Shown here: positions 25,893-29,413 of the stretch, one piece after another | How positions within the stretch are numbered: position 1 is the stretch's first letter | Layout: each line of letters starts with the position of its first letter | NCBI GenBank assembly: GCA_946539765.1 | Contig: CAMNHO010000001.1 | Span: 54,773-118,772 of the forward strand | Reading direction: 5' to 3' | DNA length: 64,000 nucleotides | From: an uncultured Faecalitalea sp. | GTDB taxonomy: Bacteria > Bacillota_I > Bacilli_A > Erysipelotrichales > Erysipelotrichaceae | Notes under the pieces: generated by a model | Database searches by the model: none | Seen by the model: the letters and a program-made list of their open reading frames with translations, nothing else | What the model was told of the DNA's origin: nothing | Program-made: the position numbers and the translations under genes

Positions 25893-26681
25893 CTAAGCTT
25901 CCTCCATCCAGTGGATCAGATCATGTCTCAACAAAGCCAGCTGTTCTTCATTATCCATCTGCATATATCGTTCCAGCTGCTGTTCATACTCCTTTTCCAA
26001 AAGCGATCGTGTCCGGTCTCTTTGTTCTTTTTGTTTCTGCTTATAGATCAGATAAAAAAGAATAAAGTAGGAACCAAAGATCAGCAATGTCAATACGGCC
26101 AGTACAACAGTAAATGCCGGTGTATAACTGAAATTGGTAAAGCTTAGCGAAGCCAGAAAACTCATTATGACCTGTATACAGAAACATAACAGCAGGTATC
26201 GTTTTCCATAACTTTCAAAAAAACGGCTGCGGTCAAACACTTTTAAGACCATCTGAAACAACAGAAAGAACAATACATACTGAAACAGATAGATCAGCGG
26301 TGACTGTGGTAAAGAAGAGGAAGGATCCACGGCTTTGACAGCGCCGTTGATCAAGGTGGTGCCGCCTAGCAAAAGCACTTCACTGCCTACGATCACAACT
26401 AATTGTAAAATGACGGACAATACTTTGCGATAAGTGGTTTCTTCTTTGAAGAACAAAAATACACAGAGCAACATCAGGCATGTATTAGCAATAAACTTTA
26501 CCGGAATGATATAGAAAAACATATAGGAGACCGGGGTTGTTACGATCTGATAGAATAAGAACACCTGCAGAAAGCTCTTTTTGCGGTTTGGGGTATACAG
26601 AAACCGACTGATAAAGTAAGCATAAATCAGATTCTGTACAAAGCTGATAGCCGAAATCTCCATCAACAGATGCCAATCCAT
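25893..26681 (-). CDS. Multi-pass membrane protein ending in an HPK10/AgrC-type H-box; no ATPase domain (paralog 1 of 4)
   Basis: Start placed at the ATG at 26681-26679 (MDWHLLMEIS...). It overlaps the upstream TAA as TAATG, and SD GGAGGA lies 10 nt upstream. The protein ends LEKEYEQQLERYMQMDNEEQLALLRHDLIHWMEEA-stop. Confidence 0.65.
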   Translation of the reverse strand: MDWHLLMEISAISFVQNLIYAYFISRFLYTPNRKKSFLQVFLFYQIVTTPVSYMFFYIIPVKFIANTCLMLLCVFLFFKEETTYRKVLSVILQLVVIVGSEVLLLGGTTLINGAVKAVDPSSSLPQSPLIYLFQYVLFFLLFQMVLKVFDRSRFFESYGKRYLLLCFCIQVIMSFLASLSFTNFSYTPAFTVVLAVLTLLIFGSYFILFYLIYKQKQKEQRDRTRSLLEKEYEQQLERYMQMDNEEQLALLRHDLIHWMEEA

Positions 26682-27538
26682 TAGTTTGTTTCCTCCAGTT
26701 TCAGCGTAGCTGCACAATAGACTTTGTCCTCTTTCATCTCAATGGTAAATTCACCATGGTGCTCTTTGCAGATCTGCTGAATGATCTGCAGACCAAATCC
26801 ATGACGTTCAAAATCCTTTTTGGTGGATAAGCCAAAGACGATCTTCGGATTGGTTTTCTTGTTGTAGGCATTCTGTACACGAATTATCAGATAGTTGGCC
26901 TGTATAAAGATTTTCACCTCGATCCTTCTTTGCAGGATATGGACATTCTGGTTGGCTTCGATGGCATTATCTAACAGATTGGTCAAAACAGACATGATTG
27001 CGTAATTGGACACTGGAATGTTTTCCGGGACAATGGCCTGGATGGCATACTTGATATGCAGCTTACGCATAATCAGGGTCTTGTTGTAAAGAATGGCATC
27101 AATCACTTTATTCGGACAATACTTGATAAAAACATCGGATGCATATTCTTCAATCAGCTGATTAGCTAAAGCCCGGTAATCAGTATTTGTATCGGTTTCC
27201 TGTTGCTTGGCAATTTCAAATAGCTTTTCCCGTTACCCATCCAGATCCTTGGATGCCTGCATACTGGCTAAAATATGCTCATTCTGGATTTCCTTTTGAC
27301 GTAAAAGGATCTCTTTTTCTGCATTCTGCCAAGCCTGGTAGGATAAGGATCTAAATACCTGGTATAAAAAATAAAAAGACAGGACACCCAATGTAAAAAG
27401 AAGGATGATAAATACCAGTAAAAAGGAGCTGTCTATAAAATGCTGGGTCAAAAGTATACTGATAAAGAATAAGATCTCAATGGTGAAAAAACCGATGATG
27501 GATCTTTCATTTTTCATATAGTAAAAGAATTCCTTCAT
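26681..27538 (-). pseudogene. Small GHKL (HATPase_c_5-like) sensor kinase interrupted by an in-frame TAA; the canonical H-box His is replaced
   Basis: One continuous frame holds 2 TM helices, a coiled region ...MQASKDLDG, TAA (27233-27235), then REKLFEIAKQ...NKVIDAILYNK...LTNLLDNAIEAN...HGFGLQII (ATPase N, G1 and G2 boxes). SKD sits where the paralogs have RHD. Confidence 0.7.
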
Positions 27539-28251
27539 AATGTCTCCTCAATTTAAAAGTATGTGTCAAATAGTATTGAAAAGATTGATTCACTTTCTTT
27601 GCGTAGCTTCGAGAAATCGGAACAAGCTGATCATTGATCAATATAAAATCCGTCCGTGTATGCTCCTTGACTTTATCAAAGTTGACAATAAAGCTTTGAT
27701 GACATTGTTGGAAACTATCTGTCAGGTCAGGGAATAATTCTTCAAAAGTCAATGCGACCCGCAGTGTCTGGGTCTTTCCATGAAGCAAGCTGTATCGTTT
27801 GATTCTTTCGATACAGTAAATCGAATGAATGGGAACCCGTACGGTTTGTTTCTACGACCAGCACCTTTTTCATCTCTGAACATAAAGCCATAGCTTTATC
27901 TAACGCCGGTTTCAGGCGCAGTTCGACCTCAGGCTTAAAAATAAAATAACAGTGCTCTGTTTCATAGACATCGGTTACTTTTTCCAGATAAGCACTGATA
28001 AAGATTATGACAGCACCGGCATCCGTCTGATGGATCTGTTTGGCAATGTCGATGCCACTGGCTTCTTTATCCAAAACAATATCCAACACATAAATATTCA
28101 TCCCTTTAAACCGGGACAGCTGATCCATCATATCCTGGGCATGAATATAAGAATAGAGCTGTATCAGAGAATCCGGATACAGATTTTTGATCCGGCTTTC
28201 CAAAGCGAGATTCTGGCGTAGATCGTCTTCTAAAAGAATTATGTTGTACAT
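27507..28251 (-). pseudogene. LytTR-family response regulator with a +1 frameshift between the receiver and DNA-binding domains
   Basis: The REC domain (MYNIILLEDD...VLDIVL...) reads in one frame as far as ...KKVLVVETNRT. The LytTR domain (RVPIHSIYCIERIKRYSLLHGKTQ...CHQSFIVNFDKV...ISRSY) continues in the +1 frame. The switch must lie within about 27836-27851. Confidence 0.75.
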
Positions 28252-28519
28252 AAAATCATCCTTTTCTGTCTAAAAAAATATATTATGAATAAATATACAT
28301 AAATAGTTATAATTAAGGGATTATTATTTAATTACTTTTGATATTGGGGACACTTTTTTTACTGTTTCGGACAAACAGAGGGATGAAAATGAGAAACCAT
28401 ATATAATAAATAACGAATAAAGAGATAGAAAAAACGAAAAATCGTAATTATACTAAAAAATACATTAAAAAACGTATATAATTATATTGAATCAATTTTT
28501 GAGGGTGTAGGAGAAGACT

Positions 28520-28720
28520 ATGTATCAGAACGTAATCAAAGAAATGAAGGAGAAACAAATCACGCTGGAAGACCTGGCCATGCAGCTACCTATGGATCTA
28601 GACTGTTTGAATGATAAAATTCAAGGAAAGCAGGCAATTACACTGGAGGAATGCATGGCTGTAAAAAAAGCATTAAAATCTCGGTTAGATATCGATATTT
28701 TATTTATAGAAGAAAAATAA
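28520..28720 (+). CDS. Small XRE-like helix-turn-helix protein
   Basis: 66 aa. The pattern ITLEDLAMQL...IQGKQAITLEECMAVKKAL resembles HTH_3-type regulators. SD GGAGAAG lies upstream. Confidence 0.45.
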   Translation: MYQNVIKEMKEKQITLEDLAMQLPMDLDCLNDKIQGKQAITLEECMAVKKALKSRLDIDILFIEEK

Positions 28721-28777: not shown

Positions 28778-29413
28778 ATGAAGAAACTAATCTATGTCAT
28801 GTTGGTGGTCTGTTTACTGGTAGCTAATGCTTCCAATGTTAATGCTATTTCACCAGAAACAAATGAATATACTCAAAAGGGATACACAAAGGTCAAAGTT
28901 CCCATTCATAAGAACCGGTTTTATTTTACCAGTATGGATAAATAATCTTATTTTGAATTACCGGAGGGTGTGACCTTTGACTATTTTGAATCGACAGACC
29001 AAGGAATGGAATATCATTTTGATGTAGATATTCTATCAAAGGATATTGTGGATATCACTTTACATATTACGGATTGGGATTCGGAGGAATACTTTCCAGA
29101 GATCATGGCAGAATATCCAAAAAAATCAGATGCAGAAAGATTGATTCCGGAAGACATTCAACAGACACCGATGGGTTTGAATCAAATCGATGGCTCAGAA
29201 TCTAAGTATAAATATATGTTATCCCATATTGCACAAATGTATTATGTGCAGGAAACCTATGTTGTAGATACGAATTCTAAACACTTGTACATCATAATAG
29301 TAGAATGCCAGTATAAAGGAGATTTTGGTAGTTCGAGCTTAAGTGAAGAGGAGGGAAAGAAGCTAAATAGTTTCTGTAATCAGGTATATGACAACTGTGT
29401 TTTAAGAAAGTAA
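28778..29413 (+). pseudogene. Secreted hypothetical protein interrupted by an in-frame TAA
   Basis: The ATG at 28778 has SD AAGGAG and starts a Sec signal peptide (MKKLIYVMLVVCLLVANASNVNA). TAA at 28943-28945 is followed in the same frame by SYFELPEGVTFDYFEST..., which is the track ORF 28970..29413. Confidence 0.6.

Follow-up and report, generated by a model that had tools for sequence, protein, structure and literature searches.

The window (the whole stretch of 64,000 nucleotides that was analysed) carries a signalling operon in which both the kinase gene and the regulator gene are interrupted. From 28251 to 23589 on the minus strand, the genes form a single tightly packed operon, in the order LytTR regulator, short GHKL kinase, and four sensors (P1 to P4). 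A gene for a secreted protein diverges from it on the plus strand. The features of the locus are:

27507..28251, minus strand: LytTR response regulator, a pseudogene with three derived changes (the sister allele is intact at 236 aa)

26681..27538, minus strand: kinase pseudogene, a His-less catalytic subunit (HATPase_c_5, hhalign, AF2, and Foldseek)

27233..27235, minus strand: in-frame TAA at kinase codon 102, derived from TTA (Leu) according to the comparison with sister contigs

27227..27229, minus strand: kinase codon 104 (Glu), the counterpart of the phospho-acceptor His column of AgrC-type kinases (hhalign, column compositions, and register scan)

25893..26681, minus strand: sensor subunit P1, 262 aa, intact; a polytopic membrane domain and a cytoplasmic helix, ending at RHD plus 9 residues

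25116..25892, minus strand: sensor subunit P2, 258 aa, intact; in the AF2 model, seven membrane helices, a long cytoplasmic helix, and a terminal H-box helix

24353..25111, minus strand: sensor subunit P3, 252 aa, intact in the window and frameshifted in strain L115

23589..24350, minus strand: sensor subunit P4, 253 aa, intact

28778..29413, plus strand: divergent secreted-protein gene, 211 aa in sister strains, cut by a TAA at 28943-28945

The stop codon of the kinase gene (TAA at 26681-26683) shares a base with the ATG of P1, as TAATG, and P1 and P2 abut. The kinase frame is open over 285 codons save for one TAA at codon 102. This in-frame TAA had been noticed in a first-pass annotation of the sequence, and it does interrupt the kinase ORF, on the minus strand at 27235..27233, in the helix that enters the DHp hairpin. 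The four sensors are tandem paralogs of 252-262 aa (26681-23589), and none of them matched any family in Pfam or NCBIfam.

We sought LytTR-type direct repeats in the intergenic region (28252-28520) and found none, and a scan for promoters and terminators gave nothing that exceeded background. A 66-aa ORF with the look of a helix-turn-helix protein lies at 28520-28720, between the operon and the divergent gene. The divergent secreted protein may be a target of the regulator.

An ATPase subunit and its separate sensors

The kinase matches the Pfam family HATPase_c_5 (PF14501) with E = 1.7e-21, and the motifs NLLDNAIEA and HGxG (the N and G boxes) are invariant in the family of short kinases to which it belongs. 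With hhalign, the short kinases aligned at 100% probability to the final 270 residues of full-length AgrC-like kinases, a region that spans their last two TM helices, DHp, and ATPase domain. When the AF2 model of the kinase was searched with Foldseek, it matched the cytoplasmic domains of histidine kinases, including AgrC (6E52, 6E95, and 4BXI). The kinase has just two TM helices, and its DHp-like hairpin lacks the acceptor His. Across the 34 members of the short-kinase family, we found no conserved His ahead of the ATPase domain. At residue 104, which corresponds to the His column, 31 of the 34 short kinases have E, D, or N; the window's kinase has Glu. The composition of this column (acidic or amide) is not random, and such residues might mimic or repel a phosphorylated partner. 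Set against a single-chain HPK10/AgrC kinase, the short kinase has the expected HATPase_c_5 domain with its N and G boxes, and the ATPase chain has neither the RHDxxN His nor a polytopic sensor with 6-7 TM helices.

The missing parts are found in the paralogs, which matched the first 280 residues of those full-length AgrC-like kinases (hhalign probability of 99.6%). In the confident structural model of a sensor (pLDDT 89.6), seven helices in the membrane are followed by a long helix in the cytoplasm, and the invariant RHDxxN is on a short helix at the end. Searching the PDB with this model by Foldseek gave no match. Word-indexed searches for the sensor family returned almost nothing, while a full HMMER scan identified 104 representative clusters, mostly of 250-300 aa. 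The weaker HMMER matches were kinases of 407-441 aa that carry HATPase_c_5.

Separate genes, whose co-occurrence is conserved, thus encode the DHp helix with the His and the ATP-binding domain. The trio of a regulator, a His-less kinase, and one to four RHDxxN sensors is present at no fewer than 12 loci in different genera; it recurs in Erysipelotrichaceae-like genomes, and the gene order varies. Matches of sensor length were found in about 17 of the 201 genomes that we sampled from the order. Some variants, from Blautia, a Clostridium MAG, Longicatena, and Olsenella uli, have a His-less kinase whose sensor domain is still complete.

Some individual loci deserve mention. A His-less kinase occurs with one or two ATPase-less RHDxxN sensors in L041 (Blautia sp.), L026 (Clostridium MAG), L028 (Olsenella uli), L024 (Longicatena caecimuris), and L079. 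The kinases of L041 and L026 still have a full-length membrane domain, and in L041 the replacement of the His is visible, with RHDM in the sensor and SKEM in the kinase. At an orthologous locus (L020/L021, from GCA_964261755.1 and Logan SRR30550132), an IS element (DDE_Tnp_IS240) lies between the sensor and short-kinase genes.

The kinase and the sensors overlap in homology, as both have the two final TM helices and the initial helix of the DHp. The arrangement therefore looks less like a simple fission than like a gene duplication after which each copy lost a complementary part. The first-pass annotation had raised the idea that the sensor part with its His and the ATPase part might be separated. 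That separation exists, and the system is naturally in two pieces, but the division is made by separate genes and not by the internal TAA. By analogy with FasB/FasC, described below, we infer that the ATPase subunit acts in trans: it would pair with a sensor via the DHp helices and phosphorylate the sensor's His, and the phosphate would then go to the LytTR regulator.

The closest studied system is FasB/FasC/FasA of Streptococcus pyogenes. There, residues 1-286 of FasC (TM and DHp, with H246) and residues 216-448 of FasB (DHp and HATPase) suffice, and FasB and FasC heterodimerise (PMC12675982, Mol Microbiol 2025). The likeness lies in the architecture: both systems have a LytTR (ComE-like) regulator and AgrC-like membrane proteins that divide the labour, two of them in FasBCA. 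However, FasB and FasC are full-length proteins (6 TM helices, DHp, and HATPase) in which the dispensable parts are still encoded. In the window's operon these parts are gone: the sensors stop 9-11 residues past the His, and the ATPase subunit has two TM helices and a Glu at the His column. Also, a single ATPase subunit faces four sensor paralogs.

The operon resembles AgrC/AgrA and other HPK10 kinases (ComD, PlnB, and FsrC) in having HATPase_c_5, an H-box of the RHDxxN type, a LytTR partner, and a polytopic membrane sensor without an extracellular domain. The difference is that AgrC is one homodimerising chain, whereas here the sensor with its His and the ATPase are on separate chains. We saw no AgrB- or AgrD-like genes adjoining the operon.

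More distant parallels come from other kinase classes. In Rv0600c/Rv0601c/TcrA, the His and the ATP-binding domain reportedly lie on different polypeptides that combine to phosphorylate one regulator. This system and CheA3/CheA4 share with the window's operon the placement of the phosphorylatable His and the ATP-binding domain on different polypeptides that serve one regulator. They differ from it in kinase class (CheA P1/P4 or HisKA type), in being cytoplasmic or otherwise anchored, and in having no multiple alternative sensor subunits. CheA3/CheA4 of Rhodobacter sphaeroides is a split histidine kinase (PMC3591291), and Rv0600c/Rv0601c/TcrA of Mycobacterium tuberculosis is a three-protein system (PMC3544749). 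In our search of the literature for HPK10 kinases that went from a single chain to a split form, we found only FasBCA and general papers on split kinases.

Origin and position of the internal stop codon

Six contigs that belong to this species or a sister species (nucleotide identity to the window of 98% and 90%) encode an intact kinase of 285 aa. Codons 101-102 read GGG TAA in the window and in contigs L109-L112, GCG TTA in L018, L019, L115, and L116, and ACG TTA in L113 and L114, which represent the more distant lineage (90% identity). When the kinase sequence translated through the stop was used as a query, it retrieved P0001 (285 aa; 98% identity), in which Ala-Leu stands in place of the window's Gly-stop; its contigs share 98% nucleotide identity with the window. 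The cluster at 90% identity contains seven distinct intact alleles of 285 aa, all with Leu102. More broadly, in 33 database relatives and in the orthologues from six other genomes of the family or order, the residue in this column is I, L, V, M, or A, once Y, and never a stop.

Since the sister contigs have TTA and the orthologues have no stop, the TAA is the derived state: one T of a Leu codon has changed to A. As would be expected of a recent nonsense pseudogene, the lesion is missing from the close relatives and the orthologues. The adjacent codon 101 has changed as well, from GCG to GGG. The ancestral codon had been proposed to be Tyr (TAT or TAC); the strain comparison gives TTA instead. 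It had also been suggested that simple recent inactivation would be indicated by sister strains with an intact Tyr codon and a canonical His. The sister strains do have an intact codon, although for Leu and not for Tyr, and they have no His, since the His-less state is native to the family.

Lesions of this kind are familiar. In agr-defective S. aureus, sublineages have become fixed for single-base nonsense mutations or small indels that hit the kinase or the regulator of a LytTR system for peptide sensing. The TAA in the kinase belongs to the same category as these nonsense pseudogenes, with no difference in kind. It is an ordinary loss-of-function allele, and no new mechanism is needed to account for it.

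The position of the stop relative to the H-box depends on the register of the alignment. We aligned the short kinases (an alignment of 16 sequences) by hhalign with the sensors (an alignment of 28 sequences) and with 18 full-length AgrC-like kinases, and the His column fell on kinase residue 104 or 105. The column compositions agree. The kinases have 99[MLI]..102[ILV] 103[KR] 104[EDN] 105[ES] 106[IL] 107[YLF]..110[LIM], and the counterpart in the sensors is -5[IL]..-2 L, -1 R, 0 H, +1 D, +2[LI], +3[LIM]..+6[IL]. A gapless register scan that left out the His column itself gave a score of 9.5 at residue 104, and the runner-up scored -0.8. (Matching an HMM of the sensor C terminus to single kinases gave a match too weak to place the His.) In these alignments, the His column is kinase residue 104, and the TAA replaces the Leu at His-2. 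In the AF2 model, the TAA falls in the first DHp helix, within a long helix (37-112) that runs from TM2 into the DHp hairpin.

This register differs from the one first proposed, in which SKDLDG-TAA was aligned to RHDLLNY, with K97 at the His column and the stop on the Tyr at His+5. The hhalign results, the column compositions, and the gapless scan all rule out K97. The apparent match arose because that register is off by exactly seven residues, or one heptad of a coiled coil, which keeps the hydrophobic pattern. We also considered His88 (in NEH) as a hidden acceptor and rejected it, as its column is Tyr in 18 of 34 relatives.

With the corrected register, the stop is no longer at the position where the paralogs end: it lies ahead of the His column and 12-14 codons upstream of their natural stops. 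P1 to P4 end at His+9 to His+11, after the invariant RHDxxN, and in the wider family this tail is 9 to 54 residues. The earlier observation that five of five sensor-type modules end after the H-box therefore holds for the four paralogs, which end 9-11 residues past RHDxxN, and not for the kinase, which has two TM helices, natively lacks the His, and is not a fifth sensor module. One nonsense codon in a gene of 285 codons would have roughly a 10% chance of lying within about 15 codons of a given landmark, so coincidence suffices to explain its nearness to the H-box.

Decay of the signalling module

The regulator is broken as well. An 8-bp deletion between 27847 and 27848 shifts the frame between the receiver and LytTR domains. 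Within the LytTR domain, the conserved HRS motif (27696-27698) has become HQS by a change of CGA to CAA (Arg to Gln). The natural stop, TAG, has changed to TTG at 27549-27551. In the sister contigs, the regulator is intact at 236 aa. In the secreted-protein gene, a TCA (Ser) codon has become TAA at 28943-28945 in the broken haplotype. Thus, the stop in the kinase is accompanied by decay of functionally linked genes (the regulator and the secreted protein), as would be expected of a recent nonsense pseudogene.

The kinase stop, the 8-bp deletion, the Arg-to-Gln change, and the stop in the secreted protein are common to all of the broken haplotypes. The loss of the regulator's stop is private to the window's sub-branch, and contig L110 keeps TAG, which indicates that this change came later than the other lesions and that the signalling module decayed stepwise in one sublineage.

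GGG TAA is also present in four independent metagenome contigs (SRR5322687, ERZ28612951, ERZ12302821, and JGI 3300002641). The linked 8-bp deletion in the regulator is present in the first three of these; the JGI 3300002641 contig has the same stop but is too short to reach the regulator. Exact kinase fragments of 101 aa and 141 aa are on record from several sources. Overall, the broken haplotype is represented by at least five assemblies and has itself diversified.

We conclude, with high confidence, that Leu102 (TTA) of the ATP-binding subunit was genuinely turned into a stop (TAA) by a nonsense mutation specific to one lineage, that this mutation is part of a stepwise knockout of a three-component LytTR operon in one sublineage of a gut Erysipelotrichaceae-like species, and that its nearness to the H-box is coincidental. 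A coincidental nonsense mutation, or pseudogenisation, was one of the two options in the first-pass annotation. It is borne out by the intact Leu codon in six contigs and seven alleles and by the broken regulator in the same haplotype.

The truncated kinase would consist of two TM helices and about 40 residues of helix, without the pseudo-H-box, the second DHp helix, or any of the ATPase domain. Because the ATPase domain is lost, no kinase activity should reach the four sensors or the regulator, and the broken lineage would be signal-blind. For the kinase, pN/pS between the window and the intact strains is 0.14-0.21, and there are few changes within the broken lineage. Such a low ratio implies that most of the divergence predates the lesion and that relaxed selection is not yet visible, in keeping with a lesion that arose late compared with the split between the strains. 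All four sensor genes (about 1,040 codons) remain intact in the broken lineage, and this and the low ratio are points that speak against decay of the module.

In strain L115, P3 has a 1-bp deletion and is called as a protein of 224 aa (L115 7428-8102, Logan SRR30684046); the kinase and the regulator are intact in this strain. Different strains thus erode different genes of the operon.

The loss might have been adaptive, with selection favoring a signal-blind haplotype rather than neutral decay. This would refine the explanation of the TAA as a nonsense allele, and we consider it possible, if rather unlikely. Selection would fit with the persistence of the diversified haplotype (at least five assemblies) in several hosts and with the uneven distribution of damage, as there are three inactivating lesions in the regulator, the kinase, and the divergent gene as compared to none in about 1,040 codons of sensor genes. 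On the other hand, once one component is lost the other genes drift, so linked lesions are expected under neutrality too, and the broken sensor gene in the otherwise intact strain L115 points to general erosion of the locus. There are precedents for lineages of this type. In S. aureus, agr-defective strains are an example of signal-blind lineages that were selected. In serotype M3 S. pyogenes, a natural 4-bp deletion in fasC silences Fas (PMC12675982), which parallels the lineage-specific knockout in the window.

A broader version of this idea combines several claims. In it, the split HPK10 kinase is hard-wired, with one His-less ATPase subunit and four alternative His-bearing sensors; the haplotype with the TAA and the 8-bp deletion is a circulating signal-blind knockout that selection has favored; and the sensors have been kept for a role that does not depend on the kinase, such as an HDxxN phosphatase, a decoy, or a partner for another kinase. 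Taken as a whole, we find this combination doubtful.

The added interest of the TAA is only that it marks a lineage in which a split kinase with several sensors has been knocked out naturally. It shows that this unusual kind of kinase is dispensable in at least one circulating gut lineage. The matched natural haplotypes, intact and dead at 98% identity, offer a way to delimit the regulon and to learn what the four sensors do. The corrected register also fixes which residues to change in mutants for trans-phosphorylation, as the His column corresponds in the ATPase subunit to residue 104, where the native amino acid is Glu, Asp, or Asn.

Readthrough, reinitiation, and assembly error

The other option in the first-pass annotation was that separation at the stop is a feature of the system. 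In that case, the stop would release a sensor-like N-terminal module, mirroring the ends of the paralogs, and the ATPase part would be made by readthrough or reinitiation. Some aspects of the locus are compatible with this: the stop is in the first DHp helix, about 12-14 aligned codons from the ends of the paralogs, and the system is otherwise built of separate sensor and ATPase polypeptides. Also, the base that follows the internal stop is C (GGG-TAA-CGG). In E. coli, C after a stop codon is the weakest context for termination, so trace readthrough would be possible judging by these bases alone.

Neither route to the ATPase part is supported by the genome. If readthrough were programmed, we would expect the stop to be conserved at this site, and no relative has it: it is missing from every orthologue and sister strain. 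Using ARAGORN, we identified 34 tRNAs in the source genome (96.6% complete), and none has the anticodon UUA, CUA, or UCA. TAA is also the normal terminator of the same kinase gene (26681-26683). Because TAA ends this gene and there is no tRNA that would read a stop, we reject a suppressor tRNA or an altered code (a reassigned TAA).

As for reinitiation, there is no in-frame ATG, GTG, or TTG between the TAA and the GTG at 27106, and we confirmed the earlier report that this GTG, the first downstream in-frame start, is not preceded by a Shine-Dalgarno sequence. In the AF2 model of the kinase, the hairpin is formed by helices 37-112 and 121-136, and the second DHp helix precedes the product that would start at this GTG. 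We therefore rejected an independent ATPase ORF from 27106, which would lack both a Shine-Dalgarno sequence and the hairpin, so that its ATPase domain would have no docking partner. Nor did we find any Shine-Dalgarno sequence or start codon that would yield a fragment with the second DHp helix.

Two further observations argue against designed separation. The stop precedes the column equivalent to the His, which is natively Glu in this protein, and the same haplotype has a frameshift in the cognate regulator, so that a designed variant of the kinase would have no output. Given that the stop is absent from the orthologues, that there is no suppressor tRNA, and that there is no usable restart, we consider designed separation to be very improbable.

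A search of the source genome for a second short kinase found none. The only other match to the sensor profile in this genome is a weak one on contig C27 (10934-11146), inside an ORF of 438 aa that is probably an ordinary full-length kinase.

Finally, the proposal that the organism truly has TTA and that the TAA and the 8-bp gap are errors of sequencing or assembly is almost certainly wrong: the source genome is a draft of 40 contigs and our evidence is from assemblies rather than raw reads, but the stop recurs in four independent contigs from other samples, three lesions recur across samples and pipelines (Logan, ENA, and JGI), including in one contig that is 0.4% diverged elsewhere, and a substitution that creates a stop and 8-bp deletions outside of homopolymers are atypical of assembly errors. 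The diverged contig, L110, carries the broken haplotype and differs from the window at 13 other sites. Eleven of these 13 differences are packed into a 150-bp stretch of the kinase's ATPase region (26738-26885 in the window), a clustering that suggests a recombination tract.
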